A DNA stretch of 64,000 nucleotides, from contig CP016211.1 in NCBI GenBank assembly GCA_001931535.1, forward strand, positions 4,567,573 through 4,631,572, written 5' to 3'. This document shows positions 6,247 to 61,827 of this stretch, piece by piece. Position 1 is the first letter of the stretch. Every line of letters starts with the position of its first letter. Below the pieces are notes generated by a model, which saw only the letters and a list, made by a program, of their open reading frames with translations, made no database searches and was not told the origin of the DNA. The stretch is from Minicystis rosea (lineage in GTDB: Bacteria > Myxococcota_A > Polyangia > Polyangiales > Polyangiaceae). A program made the translations under genes and the position numbers.

Positions 6247-6457
6247 GCAAGTACTGAAATTGAAGATCATTGTCGGTGTGGTTCTGTGGTTGCCAAGCAG
6301 CATCCGGATCGAGCTTCGCGATCTTTCTCGGGGCTCTCTTCGCCTCGATGTTCACTCGAGAAGGGGTGGGTATTCTCTTCGTGCCGAGAGCCCCTCAGCA
6401 CGACGTCCTCCGATGACCTCCATGGTCTGAAAGCGCTGTGTTGGATGCCAGAGGCTT

Positions 6458-6904
6458 TCATCGTTTGAGTGCCAGCACCACCACGCCGCTGGCCACGAGC
6501 CCGATGCCCAGCCATTCTCGCCCCGACGGGCGCTCTCCGAGGAATATGAACGCGAACACCGCCACGAGCACTAGGCTGAGCTTGTCTACGGGCGCGACCC
6601 TGAAGGCTTCGCCGACTTGGAGCGCGCGGAAGTAGCATACCCAGGACGCGCCTGTGGCCAGGGCCGAGAGCGTCAGGAAACACCAAGCCTTCGGCGACAG
6701 GGATCGCGGGTCGCTCCACTTGCCAGCATAAACGACGAAGGCGGCCAGCACGACGATGATGATGGCGGTACGAAAGAGTGTCGCCAAATCGGGATCGACA
6801 CCACGGATACCCACTTTGGCGAAGATCGCCGTGAGCGCCGCAAAGCACGCGGAGAGGGTGGCCCAGAAAAACCAACCGTGCGGTATCGGCGGCATCGTTG
6901 TCAT
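6458..6904 (-). CDS. EamA/DMT-superfamily small membrane transporter
   Basis: Four predicted TM helices. 'WCFLTLSALATGASWVCYFRALQ…VAPVDKLSLVLVAVFAFIFLGERPS' is typical of the EamA domain. Start 'MTTMPP' overlaps the upstream stop as ATGA. Confidence 0.65.
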   Translation of the reverse strand: MTTMPPIPHGWFFWATLSACFAALTAIFAKVGIRGVDPDLATLFRTAIIIVVLAAFVVYAGKWSDPRSLSPKAWCFLTLSALATGASWVCYFRALQVGEAFRVAPVDKLSLVLVAVFAFIFLGERPSGREWLGIGLVASGVVVLALKR

Positions 6905-7248
6905 AAGCGTACGGCTCGACGTCCGGTGCCGCGCTTCGGCGCAGCCAATGCCGCGCGAACTCTTGCGAGCGCCGCGCTCGACATGCGCAGACGTCGTCGG
7001 TAGCCAACCCATGCATCACCGAGGTTGAGACTGCCAGTCGTGACAGGACTCGCACTGGCGAGGAATCTCTCCTGAACGGTGTCAGCGGCCGCATGAACGG
7101 TGGCGCGCAGGACGAGACGGCGCACGCCGTCCTGATCGCGACCGTCAAACACGCTGAGATCCGAGAGGCCGCCGTTGGCGTCGTTCTCCGTGCGCTTGGG
7201 CGGCGTCATCTTGCAGCCCGCCACCGTGATTGCTGCACGCGTCAGCAC
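6901..7248 (-). CDS. Small putative lipoprotein (GTG start); degenerate paralog of the 24471..25229 lipoprotein
   Basis: '(V/M)LTRAAITVAGCK…' lipobox-like. Its 5' leader is ~80% identical to the leader of 24471..25229. The ATG-initiated frame is broken by a 2-nt indel relative to that paralog, so the gene may be decaying. Confidence 0.3.
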   Translation of the reverse strand: MLTRAAITVAGCKMTPPKRTENDANGGLSDLSVFDGRDQDGVRRLVLRATVHAAADTVQERFLASASPVTTGSLNLGDAWVGYRRRLRMSSAALARVRAALAAPKRGTGRRAVRL

Positions 7249-7860
7249 TCATCGTGCTCCTCATTCGATTCTCCTCTCCGGGGTAGGTCCTGCTCGCCGA
7301 CATTGGCGCGGGGCCTCGAGAACCTTCAAATTTCGTAGGCACGCGCTCCAGCGGCGAGCGTCCTCGCCGCCCGTGAGCCGGATCACCATCGGTCCCCACG
7401 AACGCATTGTTGGCCCTTCCGAGAGCCGCCGCGCTGGGCGCGATCCGGTGCACCGCAGTAGGCGGCGAAGGCGCCGGTTCGTATCGGCATGCCAACCCGC
7501 GAAGAAAAATTCTGAAGCTCGAGGTCTTGTCGCGCCAAGGCTTGGCGCACACCCCTCGACGCCGGCAAGGAGACGCGACCGCCGCTCACGACTTCGCCCA
7601 ACTCACAATGTTCGCCTCCGATGCAGGGCGCCCTGCTCGCCGAGCTCGTAGCTACGCCTGCGTGACACGTCGGTTCCCACCCACGTGCACGATACGTGAA
7701 CGACCGTGCTGCTCCGCACCACTCTCCCTCTCGACCGTAGCGCACGACTCGCGCATCCATCGTTCCTTGCCAGCGGCCAGCGTGGCTGTCGCGACTGGCT
7801 CGGGGCATCGGTCGACGCACCACCTCCACGGGCTCTCGAGATGCCGGTGGAGGTCGTGAG

Positions 7861-8109: not shown

Positions 8110-8207
8110 GATGTTTCTCTTATCACACGATCGCGCTCACAAATAACAAATCGATATCTGACATCGTCTCGCCAATCGGATGCCCGATCGTGTGCTCGTC
8201 ATCCATC

Positions 8208-9527
8208 ATGAGCCATCAACTCCTGTCATCTGCCGCGCTGCTCGGATTCTTCATCATGTCTCCTGCCCGCGCGCACGCGGAGCCGCCGCCGAGCCCGCCG
8301 TCCACCGTCGCTCCGCCCGCAGGCCCGGTCATCGAGCTCGCGCCCGATGACGCGGAGCCGAAGCTGCCTGCCGTCGCCATCGGGCAAGGGAAGGTCTCCG
8401 ACGCCGATGTCATGCGCGGGTTGCGCGAGCGGCGGTACCGCGCCGCTCAGGAGAGCCTCGGTCACACGTCGATTGGTGGCTACGGAGAGATTCAAGTGAT
8501 CGGGCTCACGAGCGGAAAAGACGACGCGCGGCAGTGGTCGGCCGACGTGCGTCGGCTGGTGCTTTTCGTCGCCCACTCGTTCACCAGCAACATCCGTGCG
8601 TACACCGAGCTCGAGGTCGAGCATGCCAAGCAGGTCGAGATCGAGCAGGCCATCGTCGATTGGACCGTGGCCGGCCGCTATCTTGGGCTGCGCGCCGGTC
8701 TCCTCCTCATTCCCATGGGCCTGACGAACGAAGTCCACGAGCCGCCAGCCTTCAACGGTGTCGTTCGCCCGCGACTGGAGACGGTGGTCATCCCCTCGAC
8801 GTGGCGGGAGCTCGGAGCAGGCTTCTTCGGCAATCCTACCGATACCCTCCGCTACCAACTCTATGCCGTCACGGGAATCAATCCCCTGGGTATGGCGGCC
8901 GGCGGCTTCGCCAGCGGGCTCGGCAACGGCGCGAACAGCAAGGCGAAGGCCTGGGCCGTAGTCGGGCGCGTGGAGTACGAGCCCGTCGCCGGCATCGTCG
9001 TCGGAGTCTCCGGTTACGCGAGCGACGCCGGGAAGAACGCCACGTATCATCTGCGCGATCGCTCCTCCGTGGACGTGAGCGTGCCAGTCCTCGGGTACTC
9101 GATCGACGCGCGCATGCGCCGCGCCGGTCTCGAGTGCAAAGCGCTCTTTACCGAATGGCACCTGCCGGGCTCGAGCGCACTCATGCACACGTTTGACGAT
9201 GCGGGCAAACGGCTCTTTGCCGACACCGCCGGCCCCCTGCCCACCCGGATGCGTGGAGCCTACGTCGAGGGTGGTTATGACGTCTTCCGCCCTTTCCACC
9301 TGTCCCATCAGCTCGTCCCCTTCGCACGGGTCGAGGGCTACAGCACGCAGGCCGCCGTCCCCGACGGCTTCAAGGCGAACCCCACATATTCGATCCGCGA
9401 GCACACCTTCGGCGTCTCGTATCGGCCGGTGCGTGAAGTCGCGGTCAAGGCCGACTACCAACTTCGCAATCGAAAGGCTGGACCGGACGAAACCCAGATC
9501 AACTTCGGAGTAGGATTCATGTACTGA
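8208..9527 (+). CDS. Outer-membrane beta-barrel porin-like protein
   Basis: Signal peptide 'MSHQLLSSAALLGFFIMSPARAHA', alternating beta-strand pattern, C-terminal '…INFGVGFMY' ending in an aromatic residue as in outer-membrane proteins. Resembles porin O/P-like proteins. Confidence 0.5.
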   Translation: MSHQLLSSAALLGFFIMSPARAHAEPPPSPPSTVAPPAGPVIELAPDDAEPKLPAVAIGQGKVSDADVMRGLRERRYRAAQESLGHTSIGGYGEIQVIGLTSGKDDARQWSADVRRLVLFVAHSFTSNIRAYTELEVEHAKQVEIEQAIVDWTVAGRYLGLRAGLLLIPMGLTNEVHEPPAFNGVVRPRLETVVIPSTWRELGAGFFGNPTDTLRYQLYAVTGINPLGMAAGGFASGLGNGANSKAKAWAVVGRVEYEPVAGIVVGVSGYASDAGKNATYHLRDRSSVDVSVPVLGYSIDARMRRAGLECKALFTEWHLPGSSALMHTFDDAGKRLFADTAGPLPTRMRGAYVEGGYDVFRPFHLSHQLVPFARVEGYSTQAAVPDGFKANPTYSIREHTFGVSYRPVREVAVKADYQLRNRKAGPDETQINFGVGFMY

Positions 9528-9615: not shown

Positions 9616-9741
9616 TCATCTGCACTTCGGCTTGGCCGCTCGACACGAGCTTACGAAAGGGTCACTCGCGTCCCGCTCACTTAAACGGCCGTCGCGTGTT
9701 GCCTCAACAAGCGACGCCATTGGGCAGGGGGGCTGTGTCAT
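9616..9741 (-). pseudogene. 5' remnant of an anti-sigma factor gene (first ~23 codons identical to anti-sigma 21822..22949, then a divergent tail and stop)
   Basis: 'MTQPPCPMASLVEATRDGRLSER' is identical to the N-terminus of the intact anti-sigma factor. It keeps the ATGA overlap with the sigma gene. Confidence 0.6.
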
Positions 9742-10343
9742 GTGCTTTTCTTCTTGGCGAGAGCGCGCCTCACCTCGGTGCGCGCATAATGTAGCCGGGT
9801 CCAAACCGTCCCCACCGGGATGTCGAGCGCGGCTGCAACCTCCTCACCGGAGAGCCCCTCGCGCTCAATCATCAGGAGAACGGCGCGCTTTTCCTCCGAA
9901 AGGCGCAGGACAGCCCGCGTGACCATCTCGATGTCTTGCGCGTCGGACGCCTCGTCCTCCGGGGACCGCGTCACGACGCGGGTCAACGTCTCTCCAAACG
10001 AGGCGATGATCCGCAGAAAACGGGCGTGTTTGCGTAGCCGATCGCGCGCGATCCGCGCAGCAATCCCGATCAGGAATGGACGCGCGCACGGCCGCCCATC
10101 GTACGTGGCACCGGCCCGCGGCAAGGCGAGGAAGGTCTCTTGAACGATGTCGTCGGCGTCGGCCGCACGCATGGTGAAGCGCAGCACGGAGCGGCGCACA
10201 TCGTCGTGATACCGATCGTAGAGCGCACCGAGCGCCGCGAGGTTGCCAGCGACAACTTTGGTGATGAGCTCGGCGTCGTCCTCCGCGCGATCCAAGCGCG
10301 TCATCACGGGGGCTTCTCCGCGAAGCTCGGCTCTGGATTTCAT
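9738..10343 (-). CDS. ECF (sigma-70 family) RNA polymerase sigma factor, copy 1 (orphan; its anti-sigma partner is truncated)
   Basis: '…FLALPRAGATYDGRPCARPFLIGIAARIARDRLRK…' (region 2) and 'LSEEKRAVLLMIEREGLSGEEVAAALDIPVGTVWTRLHYART' (region 4 helix-turn-helix). About 93% amino-acid identity to 22946..23551. Confidence 0.85.
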   Translation of the reverse strand: MKSRAELRGEAPVMTRLDRAEDDAELITKVVAGNLAALGALYDRYHDDVRRSVLRFTMRAADADDIVQETFLALPRAGATYDGRPCARPFLIGIAARIARDRLRKHARFLRIIASFGETLTRVVTRSPEDEASDAQDIEMVTRAVLRLSEEKRAVLLMIEREGLSGEEVAAALDIPVGTVWTRLHYARTEVRRALAKKKST

Positions 10344-10889: not shown

Positions 10890-11951
10890 TTAGTGAGGCA
10901 GCGCATCAATCCAGGCGGCGAGCTTCGCGGTGCCGTCTTCGTCGATGGCGTGGCTCACCAGGGGCGGCATCTGGTAGTTGCCGCGGAGGTGCGAGACCAG
11001 CCAGACCAGGCTATGGTCATGCGCGCCGGGCGTGAGCCGCAGCGCCCCGGGGAAGTGTTGAGCGACTGACATCGTGGTGGGCATCTGGTTGATCATCGAA
11101 GCCCACATCTCGGTCTTGTCGACCGAGACCTTCTCGACCGCTCCGCTTGCCCCGTCGGGCCAAAAGTCGCTCGCGCGGAGCCGGAGGACGAGCTTCGTCT
11201 CCTCGCCCAGGCCGCGGGTCGAGTGGCAGGCGATGCCGCAGTTGACGTCCAGATAGCCCAGGGCCGCTGCCGCCTTCCCCGTGCTGTCCTCGGGGAGCGT
11301 TACCGTCGTGTGAGCTGGAGGATGGCTCAGGTGACCGTTCGCTGCGAGCGAGGCGAGGGTGGCGCCCTCGGCGTTGGGCAAACCGAGGAGCAGCGCCTCG
11401 ACGCCGAGCAGGTGGTCGGACGCGCCGTGGTGGCACTTGTCGCACGACTTGACCGTGGGGATCTCGTACCCACTGGGAAGGATGATCCCCTTGGTCTCCG
11501 TGTTGAGCGTCGCCGCGGTGCCGGCGGCGTTCCACACGTACGTGCCACTCGCCCATTCGGTGGCGGTGCGCTTCCACTCGAGGCGCGTCTCCACCAGCTT
11601 GCCGTCGACCTTGAAATCCTTCCAGGCCTTTGTCCCCACCGGGAATTGCCAGGAATCGAGATCGCTCGTGTCGATCGGCTCGCCCTCCGGGAGGAGGAGA
11701 TATCGGTGCTTCTCGGCGCCGTCGCTCCAGAGAACGGCCCCCGGCGTGTAGGCCTGTACGCCGGCCGCGAGGTCCGCCGAGACGCGGTTGGCATAGAGCC
11801 CGGTGCAGTAGACGTCGTCCGGCAAGCCGGTCGCCGGAATCACGCACCCTTCGGTAGCCGGGGGCGGACCGCAGCTCACCACGGAAGCGCCGCCTCCGAG
11901 GACGAGCATCGTGCGCCCGAGCACCACCGCGAGCCTGCGAATCTTCACCAT
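10890..11951 (-). CDS. c-type cytochrome lipoprotein (two CxxCH haem-binding motifs)
   Basis: 'CDKCHH' and 'CGIACH'. Lipoprotein signal 'MVKIRRLAVVLGRTMLVLGGGASVVSC'. Confidence 0.7.
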   Translation of the reverse strand: MVKIRRLAVVLGRTMLVLGGGASVVSCGPPPATEGCVIPATGLPDDVYCTGLYANRVSADLAAGVQAYTPGAVLWSDGAEKHRYLLLPEGEPIDTSDLDSWQFPVGTKAWKDFKVDGKLVETRLEWKRTATEWASGTYVWNAAGTAATLNTETKGIILPSGYEIPTVKSCDKCHHGASDHLLGVEALLLGLPNAEGATLASLAANGHLSHPPAHTTVTLPEDSTGKAAAALGYLDVNCGIACHSTRGLGEETKLVLRLRASDFWPDGASGAVEKVSVDKTEMWASMINQMPTTMSVAQHFPGALRLTPGAHDHSLVWLVSHLRGNYQMPPLVSHAIDEDGTAKLAAWIDALPH

Positions 11952-11966
11952 GAATCCTCCCGTGGC

Positions 11967-12372
11967 TCAGTCGTTGGGTGCCCCGGCCTCGATCCAGCTA
12001 CGCACGGCTTCGAGCTGGTCTGCCGTCAGCGCACTGCCACCAAGCGGCATTGGTCCACCGCACGTCGGAGCGCCGGAAAGCTTCTCGTAGAAGAGGCTCT
12101 CCTCGGGGTGGCCGGGCACGACCAGTGTCCGACCAGCGCACGTCTTGCTCATCGACGGCTTGCCCACGAGGGAGGCGTACGCAGCTGCCTTGTCCATGCC
12201 CGTGGAGAGCGCGCCGTTGCTGAGCTCGTTGGGCGGCAAGCTGTGGCAGAACTCGCACTGTGCCTTGGTGTGGACGGGGAAGAGATCGGTGTAGATCTGC
12301 GAGAACGTCCCCGGCGCGGGCGAGCTGCACGCGGACGCGCCCCCGAGGAGCGCAGCGAGGAGGAGGCGCTGA
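11967..12372 (-). CDS. Small mono-haem c-type cytochrome lipoprotein (GTG start)
   Basis: 'CEFCH' motif and signal 'LSPQRLLLAALLGGASAC'. Lies between two cytochrome genes in the same orientation. Confidence 0.55.
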
Positions 12373-12376
12373 GGGC

Positions 12377-13348
12377 TCAAGGTACGCACTGGAAAGGACC
12401 GTTCTGCACCGGCGGCAAGGTGTGGATGTAGACGGCGAGGTCGCGGGTGTCGCCGTCGGTCAGGCCGCCGAGCGCGTCGGGGCCGCCCGGATGGGTGTTG
12501 CAAAAGGGCCGCGCGGTGCCCTTCTCGGTGTTCGACTTGAGCGCGGCGACGATGTCATCGACGCTCCAGCCGGCGAGCCCCGTCGCGTCGGGGGTGATGT
12601 TCACCGAGGTGTGCTCCGGGGCGCCGCGGATATAGGTGTACTTCTTTCCGCCGGCGAAGGCCTTGGTGAGGTCCGGAACGTCTGCCGAGATCTGCTCAGT
12701 GTGGCAGTTGAGGCAGGCTGTAGCCGCCAGATAACGCCCGCGCTCGGCCGCGGCGAAGTCCGGGTCACTTGCCGGAAGGGTCGTGTGCGGAATCTTGCTC
12801 TCGTCGACCGGCTGCGCGGGCGGGTTCTGATCGAAATAGGGGTAGTCGGCCGGCACGACGTTGTCGTTGGGCGGGATGGAGCGCAGGTATTGGATGATGG
12901 AGTCCTGGTCCTCGTGGGTGAGGAGCGAGTACTCCGGGTAGGGCATGATCGGGTAGATAGCGATGTTCTCGTCGTCGATGCCCTGGGTGAGGGCGCGCCG
13001 AATCTGCTCGTCCGACCATGTGGCGAGGCCTTCCGGGTTGTGCGAAGTGAGGTTCTCCGCGTTGACGGTGACCACCGTGCCGTCCGTGTCGGTGAAGTCG
13101 TACGAGCGACTCCCGGCCAGGTATTTCGTCTTGTCAGGCTTCCCATCTGCGTCGTTGGGCGTGTGACAGGCGCCGCAGACGAGCAGATGATCGACCAGGT
13201 ACTTGCCCCGCTCGATCGTCCCCGTCGTCGCGGTGGGCGCCCTGCCGCCCCCGCCTCCCGAGCCGCCCGTGCCCGTGCCGCTCTTCGAGCAGGCGAACGA
13301 GCCCGCGGCAAGGAGCGATAGACCTGCAATCAAGTGAACGATGCGCAT
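12377..13348 (-). CDS. Di-haem cytochrome c lipoprotein
   Basis: 'CGACH' and 'CLNCH' motifs. Lipoprotein signal 'MRIVHLIAGLSLLAAGSFAC'. Confidence 0.75.
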   Translation of the reverse strand: MRIVHLIAGLSLLAAGSFACSKSGTGTGGSGGGGGRAPTATTGTIERGKYLVDHLLVCGACHTPNDADGKPDKTKYLAGSRSYDFTDTDGTVVTVNAENLTSHNPEGLATWSDEQIRRALTQGIDDENIAIYPIMPYPEYSLLTHEDQDSIIQYLRSIPPNDNVVPADYPYFDQNPPAQPVDESKIPHTTLPASDPDFAAAERGRYLAATACLNCHTEQISADVPDLTKAFAGGKKYTYIRGAPEHTSVNITPDATGLAGWSVDDIVAALKSNTEKGTARPFCNTHPGGPDALGGLTDGDTRDLAVYIHTLPPVQNGPFQCVP

Positions 13349-13351
13349 GGC

Positions 13352-13861
13352 TCAATACCCCTGTCCGTTGTCGCAATAGGTCGCGTGGAACGTGCCGACG
13401 ATCTCGTCTCCGCCGTACGTGGCGTGGAGGGTGCCCTCGACGAGGCTTTTCTCCACGGCCTTGGTGAAGACGATCTCGCCCGAGTCCGCGGAGGTCTCGT
13501 AAGCCGACGACTTGCCAGTTGGGGCGAAGTTCACCTCGCTCGGCGGCACCGCGTATGTTTTCACCTTCGGAGCACCTTGGATGACCAGCTCGACGACCTG
13601 TGATCCGGCGGCGACGCCGCCCAGCCAGCGCGACTCCTGCATCGTGGCGCAAGTGATCTTGGCCGAGCTCAGGTAGACGAGCGTCTCGCCGCTGTTCGCG
13701 ATCATCAGCGAAGAGACGGTGGTCTGGGCGTCGCCGAGCGTTCCGAGCGTGCCTGACAGCTTGGTCACCGAGGTATCACTAAGGTCTACGCCGTTCGAGC
13801 TACCGCAAGCGAGCAGCGCGGAGCTAAAGGCCATGATGGCGAGTGCGGATCGGAGCGACAT
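13352..13861 (-). CDS. Hypothetical lipoprotein (first gene of the cytochrome operon)
   Basis: 'MSLRSALAIMAFSSALLACGSS' lipobox. 4-nt gap to the next gene. Confidence 0.55.
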   Translation of the reverse strand: MSLRSALAIMAFSSALLACGSSNGVDLSDTSVTKLSGTLGTLGDAQTTVSSLMIANSGETLVYLSSAKITCATMQESRWLGGVAAGSQVVELVIQGAPKVKTYAVPPSEVNFAPTGKSSAYETSADSGEIVFTKAVEKSLVEGTLHATYGGDEIVGTFHATYCDNGQGY

Positions 13862-14843
13862 GGTGCAGCCTCGAGCCACGCTTCTCGCGCGTGGCGTGAC
13901 CTGCCGTAGCGTGGTTGGTGCGGGCGCCTGGGCCAGCGTCAAGCAGACGACAACTTAAGATCTCGGCTCAACAGATGACTTAGTATCTCGGCTCAACAAC
14001 CGCCGTTAACACGAATGCGGAACACCGGCAGGGCAATGCCCTGCCAATGCACACTTGCGTGGATGACGCAGAACGGAGCTCCGGGGCGGAATCACCGAAT
14101 GATGAAAGGGGACAGACACCGGCGGACATGGGGCGCAGCGGCGCGGCGCTCCACCTGCCTCGCATCGGGCCTCCGTTCGAATGACGCATTCACCCTTCTT
14201 GGCGCGCGGCTGGGAGAAACTTCATACTCATTGTGGTGCTTTTTCGCCCCAACCGTGAGCACGTTTGGTGCGCCGGTCTTCGTTGCGAAGCTCGTTGCAC
14301 GTCGGTGACATTTCGCCCTGTCTGCGATGGGGATTCGCGGCGCACAACATCCGCCCACGGAGATTCGCCGGGGCAATCGCGATGGATCTACCTGACAGTA
14401 TCAACGAGGCGGATGTCTTCGACGCATGAGCGTCGCTTGAGCCCGTCCGCGTCGCCTCGGCATTGCCGTGGGTGCTTGCGTGCGAGGGGCATCATGGTGA
14501 CCGATACGACGACACAGGTAAGCGAGGGGGCGCGAGCTTGTTTCTGGCTGTCGGGAGGGCCCCGTAGACTCATCGTGATTCGACCGTTGGGAATCGAACG
14601 GTCGATGCCGCGGATCCTCGCCGCGAGGAGGCTTGCGCCCTGGAACGAGGATTCAATGGGACCATGAGATGGCAAACCATCGCATTCGGGTGCGCGTTAG
14701 CCCTTGTCGCAACGGGGCTGGCGTTTATTACGGCATGTGCTGTTGGAAGAAGCCTGGGAAACTAACGCACTATTCCCTGAGCTTGCGCTCGCGGCAACCC
14801 GTGGGGATGGCTCCTTACAACCATGCTCTGGAGCAGGGCGATA

Positions 14844-16652
14844 TTACCCTGCCGAGCTGGATCCATCGATAGCCGGGGACTGCGTATACGACGGCGGCGA
14901 TAGTCGCGCTCCACCGTCGACTTGGACGATCGAGAGATCTTGCCCCCCTCTCCAGGGAACCGCGAGGCCGGAGCAATCCACCCGACGTGGACCAACCCCT
15001 GCGACGAGCGTGGCGCCAATCGACGCGCTGATCACCGCAGGACCTACCAAGAACAGCGCGACCCCCGCGACCGGTGGCGGCACGGTGGTCGGATCCCAAC
15101 CGACCCACGCGGCCAGCAAAGCGAACGGGACAACCGTTGCCGCGAGGAGAGCCCATGGCTCATGTCGCAGGGGCGGTGACCACCACGCGAGCGCGCGGAC
15201 CGCGGCCACCGCGAGCAGGACGCCGGGGATCGATTGGAGGATGAAGGTCGGCGCGGGAGGCATGAGACTGAAGGTTGGCCGGCAGCCCAGAACGAGAAGG
15301 TAACCAGCGAACACCGCGAGGTTCAGGAGCGGCAGACGCAGAGCTCGAGGCGCCGCGAGCGGCCCCAGTCTCACCCCGAAACGCCGCACCGCGAGCGCCG
15401 CAATCGCGAGCGCGACGACCAGCGTCGCCACGTGCAGGACGCCGTCGGCGGTACGGCGTGCGACGAGATCGGCGGCGCGTGCCTCGGCGAGCGCAGCGTG
15501 AAGCTCCGCGGCGAGAGGCAGCGCCGCGGGGTCTGCCGTGCGCAGGCGAGCCACGAGAGCGTCGACTTGATTGCAGCGGTCGAGCGGCAACAGGGCACAT
15601 GAGAAGTGAGCGACCTGATCGAATGGAGCCGCCAGCACCCTGGCGGCACGAGGCGCGTCGAGCGCCAGCGCATCGAGCATCGGAAGGCCCAGGCTCGAGC
15701 TCGGAGCGCGCACCCCGGCGATCACGGACAGCGTAGCGGCGACATCGTGCATCGGTCGCTCCTCGAGCTGGATGCCGCGGCGAAACGCAGCGCCGACGCC
15801 GAGCATGAAAGCGTGCATCACCTCTGGCTCGGTACCTCCGTGGCCGCCTGACGCAAGATGTCCGTGGTCGCTCAATACGACGAGCGAGTCACGCTCCGGA
15901 TCCAGCGATCGCATCCGACTCGCGATCAACGCGCCCGCCTTGCGCGCCGCGCGTTGGTACTCGGCGGAGCGACCGCCGTGCTCGTGGCCTGCATCGTCGA
16001 CCTCGCCGATGTACAGAAACTCGAGCGCTCGCTGGTCGGGAATCGTCGCACGTTCGGCAGGGCTCGGCGCATCGGGGGCAGCGCCAAGCTCATCGTGCTC
16101 GACGCTCGCGCCCGGCGGCGGCATGAGCAGCTCGGCGAAAGGCCTCCACCCACGGGTGCGGATCACGATCGGGATGCTCGCGTCCCGGGCGGCGCCAAGC
16201 ACGCTGTCGAGACCGTCAACACGCAGGACTCCCGCGTTCAGGCGCACGCCGCTGTCGACGGGGTGGAGGCCGGTGACGAACGATGTGATTGCCGGCGACG
16301 TGAAGCTCGGAAACTCGACACGAAGGCTCCGGAACGTGCCCTCGCGCCTCAGTGGGGCGATCTCTTCGAGCGCCCGGGCAGCCTCGAACGAGAGTCCATC
16401 GACCACCACCACAGCGAGTCGGCGGGTGAGCGGCGGAGAGGGGGAGATCGCCGACGGACGATGGGGGACGCCCTCGAGCGACGTATGCCGCGTGTTCAGC
16501 GAGGGGAGGTAAACACCAAGCAAGTGCCAGACGACGAGCGCCGAGACCACGATCGCCGTGAGCTTCACGGAGTAAGACGCCCGTCGGGCCGGCCGTGCCG
16601 GCGAGATAGGACGCGTGGTCGAGATGGGGGGGCACATCGCCATGGGGAGCAC
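14844..16652 (-). CDS. Alkaline-phosphatase-superfamily (type I phosphodiesterase / sulfatase-like) membrane protein
   Basis: 'VVVVDGLSFEAAR', 'VVLSDHGH' and 'GGHGG' metal-site motifs. The C-terminal half has multiple TM helices. Confidence 0.6.
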   Translation of the reverse strand: MLPMAMCPPISTTRPISPARPARRASYSVKLTAIVVSALVVWHLLGVYLPSLNTRHTSLEGVPHRPSAISPSPPLTRRLAVVVVDGLSFEAARALEEIAPLRREGTFRSLRVEFPSFTSPAITSFVTGLHPVDSGVRLNAGVLRVDGLDSVLGAARDASIPIVIRTRGWRPFAELLMPPPGASVEHDELGAAPDAPSPAERATIPDQRALEFLYIGEVDDAGHEHGGRSAEYQRAARKAGALIASRMRSLDPERDSLVVLSDHGHLASGGHGGTEPEVMHAFMLGVGAAFRRGIQLEERPMHDVAATLSVIAGVRAPSSSLGLPMLDALALDAPRAARVLAAPFDQVAHFSCALLPLDRCNQVDALVARLRTADPAALPLAAELHAALAEARAADLVARRTADGVLHVATLVVALAIAALAVRRFGVRLGPLAAPRALRLPLLNLAVFAGYLLVLGCRPTFSLMPPAPTFILQSIPGVLLAVAAVRALAWWSPPLRHEPWALLAATVVPFALLAAWVGWDPTTVPPPVAGVALFLVGPAVISASIGATLVAGVGPRRVDCSGLAVPWRGGQDLSIVQVDGGARLSPPSYTQSPAIDGSSSAG

Positions 16653-17251: not shown

Positions 17252-18445
17252 ATGAACTGGCATAGTCTACTCACCGTTGCGCCAACCGCGCTGTCCGCGG
17301 TGCTGTTCTCCACGACGCATGCCGTCTTCACTCGAGCGCTGTCCCGTCGCTGTCCTCTCGACGGCTGCTCGACACCGCCACTCGTGAGCATCCTGAAGCC
17401 AATCGCGGGTTGCGACGAGGGCTTGCTCGACAACCTGACCTCGTTCGCCCATCTCGAAGGGGCGAGGTACGAGCTGCTTCTCGGCATTGCGTGCCCCGAT
17501 GACCCGGCCATTCCAGTGATCAGGACCTTTCTCGCAGCGCACCCGGCGCTCTCGGCGAGGCTCGTCGTGACCACCCCTCCCTGCGGGGAGATCCAGAATC
17601 CCAAGGTCGCGCAGCTCATCAGCTTGAGTCGCGCGGCGCGCGGCTCGGTCATCGTGGTCTCGGATGCGAACGTGCGCGTCTCACCGAGCCACCTGCGCTC
17701 GCTCCTGGCCGCGCTGTCGCAGCCCGGCATCGGTTTGGTCTCCTCCGTGGTGGTCGGCGGTGGCGAGCGAACGCTCGCCGCCGCCATCGATAGCGCCCAG
17801 CTCGGAGCCTATATCGCCCCGTCGGTCGTCGCAGCGCACACGCTCCGTCTCTGGCCCATCACGGTTGGAAAGACGATGGCCATGCGAAGTCGCGATCTGA
17901 CGTCGATCGGCGGCTTCGAGAGCGTCGGCGCAGTATTGGCCGAGGACGACGTGCTGGGGCAGCGGTTCGTCGCGCGAGGGCTCGGCGTGGCCCTGTGTCT
18001 GGAGCCCGTGGAGAACTACAGCCCGACGGCCTGTTGGTCCAGCGTTCTGAAGCGTCATGTCCGGTGGGCGGCGATGCGTCGCTCGCTGACCATGCTCGGC
18101 TTCGCCTTCGAGCTGTTTCTCTCTCCGCTCCTCGTCGCGACCGTCACTGCCGTCATCGCGCTCTCGCGCCTGTCTTTGGGCCTGCTGATCGCGGCGACCA
18201 TCTTCTCGTGTGGTGGCGCCTATCTCTCGCTCAGCCGCACGCGCCGCCAGAACGCGGCGGCGCTCGCCGCTCTCGAGCCGGTGCGGGTCGCTGTCATGTT
18301 CTCGTGCTGGCTCGCCGGTTGGTTCATTCGCACGGTCACCTGGCGGGGCAATGCCTTCCGGATCGCGAGCGGCACGAGGCTCACGTCCATCCTGGCCACT
18401 CCCGTCGCGAGCACGGCACGCGCGTCGGTGTCGCCCCATGGCTGA
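17252..18445 (+). CDS. Family-2 glycosyltransferase, ceramide glucosyltransferase / HpnI-like (Glyco_transf_21)
   Basis: 'VSILKPIAGCDEGLLDNLTSFAHLEGARYELLLGI…' N-terminal GT-A fold and C-terminal TM helices. Overall architecture matches the HpnI/GT21 family. Confidence 0.75.
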   Translation: MNWHSLLTVAPTALSAVLFSTTHAVFTRALSRRCPLDGCSTPPLVSILKPIAGCDEGLLDNLTSFAHLEGARYELLLGIACPDDPAIPVIRTFLAAHPALSARLVVTTPPCGEIQNPKVAQLISLSRAARGSVIVVSDANVRVSPSHLRSLLAALSQPGIGLVSSVVVGGGERTLAAAIDSAQLGAYIAPSVVAAHTLRLWPITVGKTMAMRSRDLTSIGGFESVGAVLAEDDVLGQRFVARGLGVALCLEPVENYSPTACWSSVLKRHVRWAAMRRSLTMLGFAFELFLSPLLVATVTAVIALSRLSLGLLIAATIFSCGGAYLSLSRTRRQNAAALAALEPVRVAVMFSCWLAGWFIRTVTWRGNAFRIASGTRLTSILATPVASTARASVSPHG

Positions 18446-22949: not shown

Positions 22950-23551
22950 GTGCTCCTCTTCTTCACGAGAGCGCGCCTCACCTCGGTGCGCGCATAGTGT
23001 AGCCGGGTCCAGACCGTCCCCACCGGGATGTCGAGCTCGGCTGCGACCTCCTCACCGGAGAGCCCCTCGCGCTCAATCAACAGGAGAACGGCGCGCTTCT
23101 CCTCCGAAAGGCGCAGGACAGCCCGTGTGACCATCTCGATGTCTTGCGCGTCGGACGCCTCGTCCTCGGGGGTCCGCATCACGACGCGGGTCAACGTCTC
23201 TCCAAACGAGGCGATGATCCGCAGAAAACGGGCGTGTTTGCGCAGCCGATCGCGCGCGATCCGCGCAGCGATCCCGATCAGGAATGGACGCGCGCACGGC
23301 CGCCCGTCGTACGTGGCGCCGGCCCGCGGCAAGGCGAGGAAGGTCTCCTGAACGATGTCGTCGGCGTCGGCCGCACGCACGGTGGAACGCAGCACGAAGC
23401 GACGCACGTCGTCGTGATAGCGATCGTAGAGCACACCGAGCGCCGCGAGGTTGCCTGCAACGACTTTGGTGATGAGCTCGACGTCATCCTCCGCGCGGTC
23501 CGGACGCGTCATCACGGGGTCTTCTACGGGCATCTCGGCTCTGGATTTCAT
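22946..23551 (-). CDS. ECF sigma factor, copy 2 (with intact anti-sigma partner)
   Basis: Near-identical paralog of 9738..10343. Sigma-70 regions 2 and 4 are present. Confidence 0.85.
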   Translation of the reverse strand: MKSRAEMPVEDPVMTRPDRAEDDVELITKVVAGNLAALGVLYDRYHDDVRRFVLRSTVRAADADDIVQETFLALPRAGATYDGRPCARPFLIGIAARIARDRLRKHARFLRIIASFGETLTRVVMRTPEDEASDAQDIEMVTRAVLRLSEEKRAVLLLIEREGLSGEEVAAELDIPVGTVWTRLHYARTEVRRALVKKRST

Positions 23552-24471
23552 CGAATGGCCACGTCGACACCGAACGTGAGCCCTACGGAGTAGGCGGGGA
23601 GCGGCGGCAAAACAGGATCGATTCGGCGCGCTCCGATGGCGCTGGCAGGCGCGACCTCACCGTCGATCCCCAAGACCCCGCGCCAGGTCCGACTCCAGTG
23701 GAGCGTCGCGCGGAGCCCGAGCGCGACACGCGCATCCACCTTGGCGCCCTCAGCCTCGCTCCCCTGCTGGCGCGCCTCCATGGAGACGATGCCAATCGAT
23801 GGATCGAATGCCACTTGCAGCTCCAGGACTCGGGTCATGAGGATCCTGCGGCTGACTGAGAGGCCAAGCCCCAGGTCCGACATTGAGAAATCGCCAGGGA
23901 CCTCATCGAATGTGTGCGGCAGACCGAGCCGTCCCCAAGCCCCCACCGACCAGGTACCGAAGGGGACTGCGGCGCGAAGCGTGGCCGTCCCCCACAACGC
24001 TCGAAGGGCGCCGCCGTATCGAATCCCCGCCAGCGCCTCGATGAGCAAGCGCGGCTCCGAAGGGCCTTGTAACGGCGCGCTCACGGACTCGACCGGAGAT
24101 GATGGCGCACGAGCGAGCGGAGGCCATTGCAGCGAGAACGCGAGCAACGCTTCGACGGTGGGCAGGAGCTCAGTGGGGCCTGTCACCTGGCGAGTCGCCA
24201 CTCTCCCATGTGAATCGGTACGAGTGATGGTCGCGTTCTCTAGAGCTGAGCTCACGCGAAGGCGCAGCTCCCCTCCGGCACAACTCCATATGTGCCCCTC
24301 TTCGGCGATGGCGACCGCGACGTCGTCGTACGCCTGTTGCCAGGCGGCGGACAGGACGGCTTCCTCGACGATTAACTGCGGCGGTACGCACGACTCGGCC
24401 CGTACCGAGACGGCGCTGATCAACAGCGTCGTCGTGGCCACGAGGACGAGCCGTGCGCGCCGCCGCCCCAT
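23548..24471 (-). CDS. Hypothetical secreted protein
   Basis: Signal-like 'MGRRRARLVLVATTTLLISAVSVRAES'. No family recognised. Coupled by 4-nt overlaps to the flanking genes. Confidence 0.45.
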   Translation of the reverse strand: MGRRRARLVLVATTTLLISAVSVRAESCVPPQLIVEEAVLSAAWQQAYDDVAVAIAEEGHIWSCAGGELRLRVSSALENATITRTDSHGRVATRQVTGPTELLPTVEALLAFSLQWPPLARAPSSPVESVSAPLQGPSEPRLLIEALAGIRYGGALRALWGTATLRAAVPFGTWSVGAWGRLGLPHTFDEVPGDFSMSDLGLGLSVSRRILMTRVLELQVAFDPSIGIVSMEARQQGSEAEGAKVDARVALGLRATLHWSRTWRGVLGIDGEVAPASAIGARRIDPVLPPLPAYSVGLTFGVDVAIR

Positions 24472-25229
24472 CAATCGTCGTCCTGCTCGGTATCGTCGTC
24501 GTGCTCTTCGCCGTCGCCATCGCCGGCTGCGCACCCAATGGAGCTCGGTACCTCGAGGTCCGGAACGCCCATCGCATGCGTCGGATCCGCGCTGCTCGCG
24601 TCGTCGGCGGTCTCGGCGTCGGCGTCGTTCGCATCATCAGCCGTCTCCGTGTCGGCGTCGTCGTTCGTCTCGCCGTCGGACGCGCCGTCGCTCGTGGAGT
24701 TTGCCTGCGGGCCGCCGTCGCAGACTTGCTTCGTCTGCGCGTCGATGCCATCCACGCAGTCCGCCCCTCCGTCATCGTTCGTCTCGCCATCGCCGTCCCC
24801 CGCGGAGCAGGCCTGGACTGCCTTGCCTGCGGCACCTGGCGTGATCGGAGCGATCCTGCTGCGCGCCGTGAGCGCAGCGCGGAATCGAACGACGCCGATA
24901 TCGACGCTTGCGCCGATGGACTTCACGGCGACCATGGTCTCGAGGTGCCCCTTGTTGCTGCGCAGGACGAGCGGCGTGACCGTACTGCCTGCCGACAGCA
25001 TGAAGTGGTAGCTACTGCCACTCGGCAGCGGAAGCGAGAACCTGCCATCCACCGCGACCGCAACGTCGAACGACGTGCCCTTGTCACTGATAACCGTGAT
25101 GGCCGTTACCGCATCAGGGAACGACCCCTGCTGGACTTGTCCGCGGACGATCGACGATCCCGGTTGCGTCGAGCTGCAACCCGCCGCCGTGATACTCGCC
25201 AGCGCGAGCGCACCCATCATGCTCCTCAT
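24471..25229 (-). CDS. Acidic lipoprotein with Asp/Glu/Thr-rich C-terminal tail and repeated C-x-DGDGE motifs
   Basis: 'MRSMMGALALASITAAGCSS' lipobox. Ribosome-binding site GGAGAGGAG. C-terminus 'CSAGDGDGETNDDGGADCVDG…CAAGDGDGEEHDDDTEQDDD'. Confidence 0.6.
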   Translation of the reverse strand: MRSMMGALALASITAAGCSSTQPGSSIVRGQVQQGSFPDAVTAITVISDKGTSFDVAVAVDGRFSLPLPSGSSYHFMLSAGSTVTPLVLRSNKGHLETMVAVKSIGASVDIGVVRFRAALTARSRIAPITPGAAGKAVQACSAGDGDGETNDDGGADCVDGIDAQTKQVCDGGPQANSTSDGASDGETNDDADTETADDANDADAETADDASSADPTHAMGVPDLEVPSSIGCAAGDGDGEEHDDDTEQDDD

Positions 25230-26170
25230 TCTTCGATTCTCCTCTCCAGGGTTAGTCACCCCGCTCATCGACGTTGGCGCGGGGCGTTGTGAACCTTCAA
25301 AAAAACCGAAGGCTCGCGACACAAGGAGCGAAGCGCCTTCTTCGTTCGTGGGCCGGCCCACGCCTCCTCCTTCCATGGCGCCTCGAGAAGTAAGGAGTCG
25401 ATATCGAGGCTCCCGCACAAGTTGATTTCGCCCATTCGACGATGCGCAAATACTCTGAAGGTTCTTCGCAGGCGTCGCCAAGAAGACGCCCACGCGTTGG
25501 TAGCGTGCAGCCAAACGGTAGACTTGATGCGAGCGCCGTGGGGCCAACGCCTCGCTGTGGAAAGCACCCGCCCCCGCGGGGTCTGGTGCGCGCACCTTAC
25601 TGAGCTGAAAGAGCACCCTGAGCTCAGCACTCCTCTCCTTGATCCTCTCCGCGCGGATAAGGACAAATACGTTCAAGACACCGTGGCGAATTGGCTCAAC
25701 GATGCAAGCAAAAGCCCCCCCAATGGGTAAAGGCCACATGCGCCCAGTGGGCTCGGAGCGGGGACGCTGCAACGCTCCGGATCGTGAAGCGGGCCTCGCG
25801 CATGTGGAGCCGCCGCTCGGCGCTGAACGCTTCGTGTGACACGCCCGAGCGTTCGAAGGCCTCGATGATCGTCGACCACTCGCTTGCGACGTCTACGCGC
25901 CTGCATGCGCGACCCTTGCCCGCTCGAGCGGCGGCGGGCAGAGGGTCAGGGCTCGTGGCGGCGGGTCACGGGCGTGACTCCGCTCCTCCAGATCGCGACA
26001 AATCAGCAGGCTGCATGATGTCGTTCGAGATCGTGGCCGCTGATTTAGCCACCCTGGTTGCGTTTTGCGAGCGTGGGGACGAGCAACGGCGCACGATGCC
26101 CCGACGTCGCTCTATCTCGATGAATCATGAGCTTACTCGAGGCTTTGACCAAGCGATGGGCAGCGCTCCG

Positions 26171-27579: not shown

Positions 27580-27649
27580 ACCCTACCCGCCCGGGCGCCG
27601 TCCCGGAGGCGCCCGCGCGAACAGCCCCGGCGACTCCATCCGATCGCGG

Positions 27650-27720
27650 CACCGGCAGCGGCATCTCGCCCGAGCTGCTCCCGCACATCTTCGGCCGCTA
27701 CTCGCGCGAGCGCTCCGGAC
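27650..27720 (+). pseudogene. ~70-nt fragment copied from a histidine-kinase G-box (paralog of 400..470)
   Basis: 'gcggcatctcgcccgagctgctcccgcacatcttcggccgctactcgcgcgagcgc' is ~85% identical to window positions 405-462. It encodes '[17 protein letters not shown]' with no kinase context. Confidence 0.5.
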
Positions 27721-29426: not shown

Positions 29427-31533
29427 ATCCCGGTAGGGACGGCCCTTTCGGGCCGCCCCCCGGACAGAGCCCGGCGAGCGGATCTCCCGCACCGGGCTCC
29501 CACCTTCGGTCTACGGACATGCAAAGCGCTGACTGGGCCAGGGGTGGACGATGCGAGCCGGCGGAAACGGAAAGCAGACATCGAAACGCTTGGTCTTCTC
29601 GACGGTCCATTGGGCTCGTTGACTTCGCCTTTGAAGCTGGCGATGCCAGGCGAGCTCGACTTGCCGACGGAACATCACCAGCGCCCGTGAATTCGTGGAA
29701 ACTCCATAGTAGTTGCAGTGCCCACGAATCACAGCGCAGAGCCACCGATGTTGTAGCGCCGGTGGCTCGTGCCTTCGTCGTCTTATTTCCACACGTAGCT
29801 CTGACAGCTTCGCCACGCGCTTCTTCCGGGAGGTACGACGTTGCAGTTGGAACCTGCCACCGCGCGTTTGGCCGGCGATGTGCGTGAACCCAAGGAAGTC
29901 AAACGTCTCGGGCCGCGCACGGCCGTCGTGTCTGCACTCCTTGCGGGCGTAGCGCCCGAACCGCAGCACCCGAGTCTTCTCTGGGTGCAGCTCCAAGCCG
30001 AACTTCACGATGCGCTCGGCCATCGCCGACCGCATCGCGCGTGCGTCCTGTTCGTACTGAAAGCCCAGCACCACGTCGTCGGCATAGCGCACAATGTAGA
30101 CTTCCCCTCGCGCATGCCGCCGCCGCCATTGCTGGACCCACAGGTCGAGCGCGTAGTGCAGGTAGATGTTCGACAGCAAAGGGCTGATGCCACCCCCTTG
30201 TGGCGCTCCCTCCTGCACCGCGCGCACCTCACCGTCCTCCATGACGCCAGCGTGCAGCCACTTCATCAAGAGCCACACCATGCGTCGGTCTGCGATCGTG
30301 TGCTCGATGAACTTCTGCATCCATCCGTGCTCAATCGTGTCGTAGAACGCACGGATATCCGCGTCGAGCACCCAGCTCACCTTCTTGCCGATGGCCACCG
30401 CGAGAGCATCCAGAGCCCGATGCTGCGACCGGCCAGGCCGGAAGCCATACGAGAACCCCAGAAACGCCTGCTCGTAAATGGGCTCCAGGATCATCCGCGC
30501 TGCTTGTTGAACAATCTTGTCCTCCAGCGCAGGAATGCCGAGCGGACGCGTGCGACCATCTCCTTTGGGGACGTGTACACGCCGGACCGGCTGCGGATGA
30601 TAGTTGCCGCGGTGAACGCGGTCCTGAAGGTCACGCATTCGGGCGTCCAAATTCTCGCCGTATACGCGCCATGTTATCCCATCTACACCAGGAGCCGCTT
30701 CCTTGTTGAGACGGCTGTACGCCTCCTTCAGAAGTGGCACCTTGATGTGGCTCAGCAGGTTGGTGAACCGTTCCCCTTTCCTTTGCTTCACTCGCTGTCC
30801 GACCCGCTCCAGGGCCGTGAGCGCGCCTGCCCGGTTCTGAGCCCGGAGCGCGTTTCGTGGAGCAGGTTTCCCGTTGGCCGCGCGCCTTCCCTCCATCGAC
30901 TCCGCAGGCGTTACCCTCGCGTTCGCCGACTTCTTGCAGGTCGGTACTACGCGCGCGTCTGACTCCTCGGAGGACTGCTGCGGATTGCGGCTTCTGCCTT
31001 CCCGCCCGTGCCTGAGGACCGCTATCGGCCCACCGGCCCCTCCGAGGTCTCCCGGTTCCCGTGCATGAGACGTGTGGGGGCTTGCCGAACTCTTGGACCC
31101 CGGAGGGAGCAGTGAATCCAGGTCCACATTATTCGGAAACACGCTATGGCCATCCGCATGGTCTAACTGCGTTGGCTCCCTCGAACCATGTTGTTTCGGA
31201 GCTCGATCACCCGGCCCGCCCACATGCCCTCCTACGCTTCGCCCCGCAGGTCACCCTGCGTTGCGCAAAGATAGGCTTCCCAGGGGTGGACTCTTCCTGG
31301 GGCAGGACTTGCTCGACACGACATGTATCTTGCTCACCTGCTTTCTCATGCCGGTTTTCACCGGCGCACCAGACCGAACATTTGGGGAAATGTTCGTTCT
31401 TCCTCGTGAATCATCGGTCGGGTGCCACCAGCTTAACACGAGTCTGATCTCGGCGAGCTCCCCAACCTTGTCGGCGGCGATGCACGGACCGGGAGGCGCG
31501 GACTTCGTAGACACCGCCGACGGGCGACGGCGG
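29427..31533 (-). mobile_element. Group II intron (apparently full length, ~2.1 kb) with intron-encoded RT/maturase
   Basis: Minus-strand 5' end GTGCG at 31533. IEP ORF lies in domain IV. Domain V 'GAGCCCGGTGCGGGAGATCCGCTCGCCGGGCTC' and domain VI hairpin 'CCGGGGGGCGGCCCGAAAGGGCCGTCCCTACCGGGAT' have a bulged A 8 nt from the 3' end and end in AT at 29427. Confidence 0.75.
29511..30896 (-). CDS. Group II intron reverse transcriptase/maturase (intron-encoded protein)
   Basis: RT domains 0-7 ('GVDGITWRVYG', 'RRVHVPKGDGRTRPLGIPALEDKIVQ', 'FRPGRSQHRAL', 'YADDVVLG') and maturase X 'RGHCNYYGV'. No HNH endonuclease domain. Confidence 0.85.
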   Translation of the reverse strand: MEGRRAANGKPAPRNALRAQNRAGALTALERVGQRVKQRKGERFTNLLSHIKVPLLKEAYSRLNKEAAPGVDGITWRVYGENLDARMRDLQDRVHRGNYHPQPVRRVHVPKGDGRTRPLGIPALEDKIVQQAARMILEPIYEQAFLGFSYGFRPGRSQHRALDALAVAIGKKVSWVLDADIRAFYDTIEHGWMQKFIEHTIADRRMVWLLMKWLHAGVMEDGEVRAVQEGAPQGGGISPLLSNIYLHYALDLWVQQWRRRHARGEVYIVRYADDVVLGFQYEQDARAMRSAMAERIVKFGLELHPEKTRVLRFGRYARKECRHDGRARPETFDFLGFTHIAGQTRGGRFQLQRRTSRKKRVAKLSELRVEIRRRRHEPPALQHRWLCAVIRGHCNYYGVSTNSRALVMFRRQVELAWHRQLQRRSQRAQWTVEKTKRFDVCFPFPPARIVHPWPSQRFACP

Positions 31534-54775: not shown

Positions 54776-55948
54776 TCACGCCGCGAGGACGACCTTCTCG
54801 CAACCGTCGAGCTTGTTGACGAACAGGTCGTATCCGCGGGGCGCGTCCTCGAGCTTCATGCGATGGGTGATGACGAAGCTCGGATCGATCTCGCCCTTCT
54901 GGATGCGCTCGAGCAGCGGGCGCATGTAACGCTGCACGTGGCACTGGCCGCTCTTGATGGTGAGCGAGCGGTTCATCACGGCGCCCATGGGGAACTTGTC
55001 GATGAAACCGCCGTACACGCCGATGACGCTGACGATGCCGCCGTTGCGGCACGCCTGGATCGCCTCGCGCAGCGCGATCGGGCGATCGGTCTCGAGCCGC
55101 ATGGCCTGCTTGGCGCGGTCGTAGGCGAACATCGGCCCGTGTCCGTGCGCCTCCATGCCCACGGCGTCGATGCACGCGTCGGGGCCGCGCCCGGCGGTCA
55201 TCTCGGCGAGCGCCTCGAGCACGTCCACCTCCTCGTAGTTGATCGTCGCCGACGCGCCTGCCTTGTCCCGCGCCATCTGGAGCCTATACGGGAAGCGATC
55301 GATGGCGATCACGCGCTCGGCGCCGAGCAGGCGCGCGCTGGCGACGGCGAGCAGACCGACCGGGCCCGCGCCCCACACGGCCACGACGTCGCCGGGCTCG
55401 ATCTCGGCCATCTCCGCGCCCATGTAGGCCGTCGGGAAGATGTCGGAGAGGAAGAGCACCTGTTCGTCAGTGAGCTCGGCCGGGACCTTGATCGGCCCGA
55501 CGTCGGCGAACGGCACGCGCGCGTACTCGGCCTGGCCGCCCGCATAACCGCCCAGCAGGTGCGAATAGCCGAAGATGCCCGCCGGCGAGTGGCCCCACAG
55601 CTTCTCGGCCATCCAGGCGTTGGGGTTCGAGTTCTCGCAGACCGAATACAGCTCCTCCTTGCACATCGCGCAGGTGCCGCAGGCGATGGGGAAGGGGACG
55701 ACCACGCGATCGCCGACCTTCAGGTTCTTCACCCCGGGCCCGACCTCGACGACCTCGCCCATGAACTCGTGGCCGAGGATGTCGCCCTTCTCCATGGTGG
55801 GGATGAAGCCGTTGAAGAGGTGCAGATCCGAGCCGCAGATGGCCGTCGACGTGATCTTGATGATGGCGTCGTGCGAATTCAGGATCTGCGGATCCGGCAC
55901 GTCCTCGACCCGAACCTTCCTCTTGTCGATCCAGCTGTTGGCTTTCAT
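54776..55948 (-). CDS. Zn-dependent alcohol dehydrogenase, glutathione-independent formaldehyde dehydrogenase-like
   Basis: 'CGSDLH', '[12 protein letters not shown]', structural-zinc Cys cluster '[15 protein letters not shown]', 'VWGAGPVG' Rossmann motif. Confidence 0.85.
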
Positions 55949-58961: not shown

Positions 58962-58965
58962 AGCG

Positions 58966-60506: not shown

Positions 60507-61827
<1,321 letters not shown>

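Follow-up and report, generated by a model that had tools for sequence, protein, structure and literature searches.

A bipartite element conserved upstream of an ECF sigma factor operon in Minicystis rosea is probably the operon's own promoter, with a second copy in a decayed paralogue

Two similar stretches of minus-strand DNA in Minicystis rosea raise the question of what kind of element they carry and why it occurs twice. Both lie in a 64,000-nucleotide (nt) segment of contig CP016211.1 (positions 4,567,573 to 4,631,572; hereafter the window, numbered from its first letter), and a preliminary description of this DNA presented them as a 5' leader or promoter module of about 80 nt shared by two lipoprotein genes, for which a riboregulator, a sigma factor-specific promoter or a remnant left by duplication of a gene's 5' end were considered. 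The analysis presented here makes it likely that the element is the promoter of an extracytoplasmic function (ECF) sigma factor operon, read by the sigma factor that this operon encodes, and that the second copy belongs to a decayed paralogue of the same operon.

The existence of two similar minus-strand copies (A and B) was confirmed by exact pattern searches of the window, by blastn of the window against itself and by global alignment. The pattern TGAAGGTTC-N5-GCCCCGCGCCAA-N-GTCG matched exactly twice, at 25299→25269 (copy A) and 7328→7298 (copy B), where shuffled sequences lead one to expect no match; the first spacer is N5 and not N6, as had been reported. Exact occurrences of GGAGAGGAGAATCGAA were likewise limited to 25247→25232 and 7279→7264. 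In the self-comparison, 7212-7330 paired with 25175-25301 (76% identity over 127 nt, E 1.5e-17), and global alignment of 25305→25173 (A) with 7334→7210 (B) gave 100 identical columns out of 134. The exact blocks common to both copies would not be expected by chance. An identity of ~80%, as originally estimated, applies between the -35 element and codon 5, but it falls to 74.6% over the whole aligned stretch. The ranges first given for the two copies were also out of register with each other, as that of A (25230-25315) takes in 14 upstream nt without homology and ends short of the ATG and that of B (7249-7330) covers five codons. Likeness between A and B sets in abruptly at a T-tract, with the ~200 nt upstream being 53% identical against a shuffled null of 51 ± 1.6%, and it continues past codon 5 and through the signal peptide up to the lipobox Cys (A, MRSMMGALALASITAAGC; B, ...ITVAGC).

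Copy A sits 70 nt ahead of lipoA, which opens a series of four minus-strand genes that overlap or abut and end in an ECF sigma factor (sigma A) and an anti-sigma factor (Table 1). A signal peptide, a lipobox Cys and a conserved family mark lipoA as a lipoprotein gene, the Cys (position 18) being invariant in all 22 homologues of the family; its AlphaFold model (mean predicted local distance difference test score, pLDDT, 72) had structural matches to generic beta-sandwiches only. Pfam and NCBIfam scans gave no family for geneX, the second gene, and the only NCBIfam match of sigma A was TIGR02937, the general ECF superfamily model. A metagenome search with an alignment of six sequences returned four loci. 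The order of lipoprotein, ~310-330-aa (amino acid) protein, ECF sigma factor and FecR-TPR anti-sigma factor is kept in five metagenomic loci (L009, L011, L017, L019 and L021), while the operon of L012 has no geneX and in L022 the lipoprotein gene is divergent from the remaining genes. The metagenomic lipoprotein homologues share 30-48% identity, geneX is 38% identical over 312 aa to its positional counterpart in L009 (1554-2540), and sigma A is 55% identical to the sigma factor of L009. An anti-sigma factor with the architecture found in operon A follows the sigma factor in L009, L011, L012, L019 and L021. When sigma A was used to search genome contigs, only distant ECF sigma factors from unrelated phyla were recovered (L001-L007). 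Minicystis rosea and uncultured relatives appear to share an uncharacterised, conserved ECF signalling operon, and the element found at copy A precedes the sigma-encoding unit in L009, L011, L017, L019, L021 and L012 as well.

Sequence comparison of the upstream regions narrowed the conserved part of the element to a bipartite motif. Orthologous regions share a T-rich tract and TGAAGG, often in the form TGAAGGTTC, and of 12 distinct upstream regions from orthologues or paralogues, 11 have a GAAGG that begins 54-82 nt ahead of the start codon (counted between -100 and -40, with a chance of ~0.1 per locus). An unbiased k-mer count over the nine loci other than the window itself returned GAAGG as the top enriched 5-mer (9/9 loci, Bonferroni 4e-5) and TGAAGG as the top enriched 6-mer (7/9 loci, Bonferroni 1.3e-5). 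At a fixed distance, 16 nt after this -35-like block, follows an A-rich -10-like block, which reads CCAA in M. rosea, L008, L011 and L012, GAAC in L009, GGAA in L013 and CACCCA in L017 and L019; the M. rosea form is extended to CGCGCCAA at 25299, 7328, 14224 and 7513. In L022, where the sigma operon is inverted, the motif is inverted along with it and faces the sigma genes. Below the -10-like block the orthologous leaders have nothing in common except a Shine-Dalgarno (SD) sequence, and the CGTCG or TGTCG that directly follows CCAA in copies A and B is not conserved in the orthologues.

The motif also recurs within the window. With at most one mismatch, TGAAGG-N16-CCAA was found at nine sites against 1.7 expected, a number reached by none of 100 shuffled sequences. 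Six of these sites are non-coding, and a seventh non-coding site, 16805(-), was found with a looser -10 pattern; the other three of the nine, all within coding sequence, are probably due to chance. The gene cluster downstream of the third motif copy (13861..10890, in which the cytochrome gene 12377..13348 corresponds to APR78563.1) is 65-73% identical to L011 4446-6012, and the L011 cluster is itself preceded by the motif (L011 4289), so that two organisms have the motif ahead of orthologous target clusters. Second sites are present in L009, L011 and L008, and within each locus the two sites have the same -10 variant (Table 1). A 195-aa gene beside the 3287 site of L008 is distantly homologous to the 169-aa lipoprotein of the window; comparison of window gene 8190..9527 with the gene that the divergent L008 site precedes gave no match. 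Taken together, the sequences suggest that the motif most likely marks a small regulon in this neighbourhood, with envelope lipoproteins, dihaem cytochromes and lipid-modifying enzymes as its candidate members.

ECF sigma factors often regulate their own expression, and their promoters have been found as over-represented bipartite motifs upstream of orthologous sigma operons (PMC7826278, PMC7776599), with spacers of 16-18 bp (PMC7776599). The 16-nt spacer, the position upstream of the operon and the recurrence of the motif match this anatomy and therefore favour an autoregulated ECF promoter. The sigma factor-specific promoter proposed earlier on account of nearby ECF genes is accordingly strengthened by a motif that precedes orthologous ECF operons and recurs before conserved neighbour genes. 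In the proposed mechanism, sigma A would, once freed from the FecR/TPR anti-sigma factor, read TGAAGG-N16-CCAA, and transcription would start a few nt below CCAA to give a leader of ~33 nt, from which the strong SD sequence would direct translation of lipoA. The 5' control region would then consist of the T-rich tract, the bipartite promoter, this short unstructured leader, and the first gene's start and signal peptide. Copy A would drive lipoA, geneX, the ECF sigma gene and the anti-sigma gene in a positive autoregulatory loop restrained by the anti-sigma factor, and the same motif would serve the small regulon nearby. With TTTGAAGG-N16-CCAA as a predicted promoter motif, a repeat that had lacked an explanation yields a regulatory model that can be tested.

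Autoregulated ECF promoters of the sigma-E/RpoE and SigW types resemble the element in lying upstream of a sigma and anti-sigma operon, in their bipartite build with a fixed 16-nt spacer and short leader, in their conservation across orthologous operons and in their repetition before neighbouring target genes. The element differs from them in having TGAAGG(TTC) after a T-tract, without AAC, and a -10-like block of CCAA, GAAC or CACCCA in place of CGTC or CGTA. Its geometry (GAA..-N16-..CAA) resembles that of the Escherichia coli sigma-E promoter GGAACTT-N16-TCAAA, and we know of no experimentally studied member of this promoter type. FecI/FecR cell-surface signalling also pairs an ECF sigma factor with a FecR-domain anti-sigma factor encoded beside envelope proteins. 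Unlike that system, the operon described here has no TonB-dependent transducer, its partners being a lipoprotein and a ~300-aa protein; its anti-sigma factor begins with zf-HC2 and ends in a TPR/YfiO-like domain, and its sigma factor matches the general ECF superfamily model only.

Copy B had been taken for the start of a second lipoprotein gene (6901..7248) with a GTG start, but a frameshifted signal peptide joined to a sigma factor remnant was found instead. Relative to A, copy B has a net loss of 2 nt between ATG 7264 and the lipobox, which places the lipobox out of frame with this ATG, and the ATG frame ends at a stop at 7145 after 39 codons. Downstream, 7057-7168 matched 23333-23450, inside the sigma A gene (74%), in the window self-comparison, and the 115-aa open reading frame (ORF) 6901..7248 matched the N-terminal 73 residues of sigma A in blastp (45% identity, E 2e-12) and also in blastx. 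In a three-way DNA alignment that also included sigma A and sigma B, a second ECF gene of the window, copy B passes from the lipobox codon straight into sigma codon ~14 and extends as far as the region 2 FLA motif. The junction implies a deletion of ~1.66 kb relative to A (about 25172..23513). The 'mature' part of the supposed lipoprotein is therefore sigma remnant, and the earlier remark that the coding sequences diverge quickly is misleading in that the downstream DNA of B is homologous to another gene of operon A. No homologue of the 115-aa ORF was found among 5.8 billion proteins; it matched no Pfam family and is missing from the protein collection searched.

From these alignments, copy B is best read as a paralogous copy of operon A that lost ~1.66 kb internally, which would have fused the signal peptide to sigma codon ~14, and that was then frameshifted and decayed. 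Since its body combines a sigma remnant and a frameshift with a lack of homologues, 6901..7248 is, on sequence grounds, a chimeric pseudogene of signal-peptide remnant and ECF sigma remnant. The idea that a gene's 5' end was duplicated and left a relic is thus supported as well, and descent from a paralogous operon explains why A and B resemble each other beyond the promoter blocks. Pseudogenised segmental duplicates in large myxobacterial genomes are comparable, as copy B likewise consists of a 5' end and an internal gene fragment at ~75% identity and has undergone a large deletion, a frameshift and in-frame losses. Copy B differs from these in having kept every motif position, the SD sequence and the ATG, and in lying directly next to an EamA gene that looks functional. 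For this reason, capture of the promoter is possible, and copy B may today drive the EamA, dihaem oxidoreductase and PAP2 genes; a terminator scan between copy B and EamA found no convincing candidate. The decay of an operon could in this way leave an intact alternative-sigma promoter beside unrelated genes.

For the most part this is ordinary biology, well explained by a known kind of element (an ECF operon promoter) and a pseudogenised paralogue, and it would not surprise ECF specialists. A bolder proposal, which we put forward tentatively and think more likely wrong than right, is that the operon represents an undescribed Polyangiales-like ECF group with a T-tract and a TGAAGG -35 element devoid of the AAC core, and that an exapted copy B has placed EamA, and possibly the dihaem oxidoreductase and PAP2 genes, under the control of sigma A and sigma B. 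If so, a -35 element without the AAC core would imply a different read-out of DNA by sigma region 4.

Several observations weigh against an ECF promoter read by sigma A. AAC in the -35 and CGT in the -10 element are typical of the ECF promoter class, the AAC core being found in many of its members, although neither is universal; the blocks found here (TGAAGG, then CCAA, GAAC or CACCCA) have neither, and the -10-like block differs between subgroups. The 25456(+) site has no convincing target gene downstream, and several window sites are far from start codons (14224 by ~340 nt, 16841 by ~400 nt and 7513 by ~650 nt). At 75% overall identity, two sequences cannot separate chance from selection as the cause of the perfect motif blocks of copy B. 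Sigma A could be placed no more finely than in the ECF superfamily, and both the transcription start and the dependence on sigma are inferred. Moreover, about half of ECF sigma factors are not autoregulated (PMC7776599).

Some of these points would also suit a real cis-regulatory site that is read by another alternative sigma factor or by a transcription factor rather than by the co-encoded ECF sigma factor. We consider this unlikely, but it is the alternative that survives best. Besides the missing AAC core and the frequency of ECF sigma factors without autoregulation, it can draw on GAAGGTTC, which is quasi-palindromic in several loci, and on a sigma-54 activator that adjoins the L012 operon. 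However, TGAAGG alone is invariant and the palindrome is not, and the motif is bipartite, with a fixed 16-nt spacer and a distance of 54-82 nt from the ATG. It always accompanies a sigma-containing operon, even where this operon is inverted, and its -10 variant differs between organisms but is common to the sites within one, as expected if it co-evolves with the sigma factor encoded at the locus. Sigma-70 hexamers (TTGACA-N16-18-TATAAT-like) gave zero sites in 25100-25600 and 6400-7600. A sigma-54 promoter (GG-N10-GC) was tried as a candidate and rejected, as it fits L012 loosely and neither A nor B.

It is very improbable that the likeness of A and B reflects shared ancestry alone, with the motif blocks a neutral relic that has no promoter role. 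Equal similarity of the coding regions, which the preliminary description had named as grounds for doubting a shared module, was found in part: the leader (75% identity) and the sigma remnant (74%) are about equally similar, although the remnant is displaced by the deletion, and at ~75% identity long perfect runs can arise by chance. Yet the same motif occupies the same position in loci where the proteins retain only 30-48% identity, and is the top-ranked k-mer there; at such distances neutral non-coding DNA would be randomised, and the retention of the motif therefore speaks against a neutral relic, as does its recurrence at other non-coding sites. Hardly credible, too, is a genuine, expressed small lipoprotein gene at copy B that starts at GTG 7248 and has a regulatory module in common with lipoA. 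Its ORF stays open for 115 codons, V-A-G-C is kept and the stop codon shares bases with the start of EamA (ATGA), but the SD sequence, 23 nt before GTG 7248, is spaced to serve ATG 7264, which is in a different frame, the Cys would come after only 11 residues, and the rest of the ORF is the decayed sigma region-2 remnant described above. Least probable of all is a cis-acting RNA (riboswitch, thermosensor or small RNA target) in a 5' untranslated region common to two lipoprotein genes, the riboregulator first suggested, because a hairpin of 6 bp directly before the SD sequence in copy A (-9.5 kcal/mol, weak at z -1.96) is destroyed by a 3-nt deletion in B (z +1.52), folding of both leaders gave no shared structure and none better than shuffles, Rfam gave no match at the element, either over the whole window at the gathering threshold or over 25100-25500 at E<=1, and the likely transcription start falls downstream of the conserved blocks. 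The untranslated region predicted to follow it is only ~33 nt long and is not conserved in orthologues.

Table 1 Features of operon A, copy B and the further motif sites (coordinates refer to the window, or to the named metagenomic locus).
Feature	Position	Strand	Details
Copy A, predicted promoter core	25274..25305	-	T-tract 25305→25300; -35-like TGAAGG 25299→25294 (then TTC); 16-nt G+C-rich spacer; -10-like CCAA 25277→25274 (extended GCGCCAAC)
Copy A, short 5' leader	25230..25273	-	Shine-Dalgarno GGAGAGGAG 25247→25239, 9 nt from ATG 25229
lipoA, 252-aa lipoprotein, operon A gene 1	24471..25229	-	Signal peptide and lipobox ITAAGC 25229→25176; beta-sandwich N-domain; acidic Cys-containing C-terminal region
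geneX, ~307-328-aa protein	23548..24471	-	Probable ATG 24471 overlaps lipoA stop (TGATG)
ECF sigma factor A, 201 aa	22946..23551	-	Pfam Sigma70_r2, Sigma70_r4_2, Sigma70_ECF
Anti-sigma factor A, 375 aa	21822..22949	-	Pfam N-terminal zf-HC2, FecR domain, C-terminal TPR/YfiO-like region; start overlaps sigma stop
Copy B, predicted promoter core	7303..7334	-	AAATT and TGAAGG 7328→7323; 16-nt spacer; CCAA 7306→7303; every motif position as in copy A
Copy B, leader and signal-peptide remnant	7210..7302	-	SD 7279→7271; ATG 7264; lipobox Cys codon 7215→7213
Copy B, sigma factor remnant	7050..7209	-	Homologous to sigma A codons ~14-73 (region 1.2/2); in-frame losses of 21 and 6 nt
EamA-family transporter gene	6458..6904	-	Pfam EamA E 8e-23; ATG 6904 overlaps relic ORF stop (ATGA), directly downstream of relic
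Third motif copy, TGAAGT-N16-CCAA (GCCGCGCGCCAAG)	14199..14224	-	Upstream of cluster 13861..10890: 169-aa lipoprotein, then dihaem cytochromes c
Back-to-back divergent pair, minus half	16805→16780	-	TTTTTATGAAGG-N16-GGAA, facing phosphodiesterase-family gene 16652..14844
Back-to-back divergent pair, plus half	16841-16866	+	TTTTTATGAAGGTTC..GCGCTAA, facing GT21 glycosyltransferase gene 17252..18445
Divergent motif copy 157 nt upstream of A	25456..25481	+	TGAAGGTTC-N13-CCAA, no mismatch
Divergent motif copy 185 nt upstream of B	7513..7538	+	TGAAGC-N16-CCAA, CGCGCCAAGG; next plus-strand gene 8190..9527, ~650 nt off
L009 motif sites	615 and 1508		1508 before geneX; common -10 variant CGCGTGAAC
L011 motif sites	886 and 4289		4289 before 190-aa lipoprotein and cytochrome c cluster; common -10 variant GGCCAA
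L008 motif sites	3300 and 3287		Divergent; common -10 variant CGCCAAG

The motif sites are often arranged back-to-back and divergently and share a single T/A-rich tract, as at L008 3287(-)/3300(+) and window 16805(-)/16841(+), which suggests recurring bidirectional promoter regions. Genes for envelope and lipid functions surround the sites in the window (3671-6904 (-), 14844-21490 and 28545-29228 (-)) and encode an EamA transporter, a DHOR dihaem oxidoreductase, a PAP2 phosphatase, a type I phosphodiesterase-family protein, a GT21 glycosyltransferase, an MMPL transporter and a CDP-alcohol phosphatidyltransferase. PAP2 genes also neighbour the orthologous operons in L012, L017 and L019/L020, and together with the envelope and lipid genes they hint at the function of the regulon. 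The second ECF gene, sigma B (10343..9738, minus strand), is intact and forms the 3' end of the cytochrome cluster that bears the TGAAGG motif at 14224. Its segment 9616-10356 shares 93% DNA identity over 691 nt with 22874-23564 of the sigma A region, but the duplication stops 72 nt into the anti-sigma gene, so that the anti-sigma copy is a 41-codon stub (9741..9616) without the zf-HC2 motif. Sigma B may be an orphan without an anti-sigma factor, with the same promoter specificity as sigma A.

Two gene models are affected by these results, namely 6901..7248, here read as a chimeric pseudogene, and lipoA, which appears to be annotated too short. In the NCBI annotation lipoA is the 176-aa A7982_03919, which starts at an internal Met and is 100% identical to the corresponding part; the SD sequence, signal peptide, lipobox and 22 homologues favour the 252-aa form from 25229. 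A paralogue, A7982_04434 (86% identical), also seems to have been annotated from its second ATG. The C-terminal half of geneX has alternating hydrophobic patterns suggestive of an outer-membrane beta-barrel.

Elsewhere in the window, Rfam matches to group II introns were found at 61097-61319 (-), 31088-31311 (-) and 37648-37722 (+), with D1-D4 scoring 181 and 113 bits and domain V-VI 48.5 bits. A 570-aa ORF (29511..31223, minus strand) and related repeats (29414-29514 with 37735-37635, 92% identity; 30868-30967 with 60881-60977) were also present, and the intron matches and repeats together point to several group II intron copies or fragments. An inverted duplication of 1.1 kb (54820-55915 with 60091-58999, 73% identity) involves the genes 54776..55948 (-) and 58831..60135 (+), both with a very high third-codon-position G+C content (GC3) of 0.94. 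Lastly, a 69-nt repeat with 87% identity (387-455 and 27645-27713) encodes a histidine-kinase ATPase-type motif, and its copy at 27.6 kb, for whose surroundings there is no clean gene model, is possibly a further relic of a gene.

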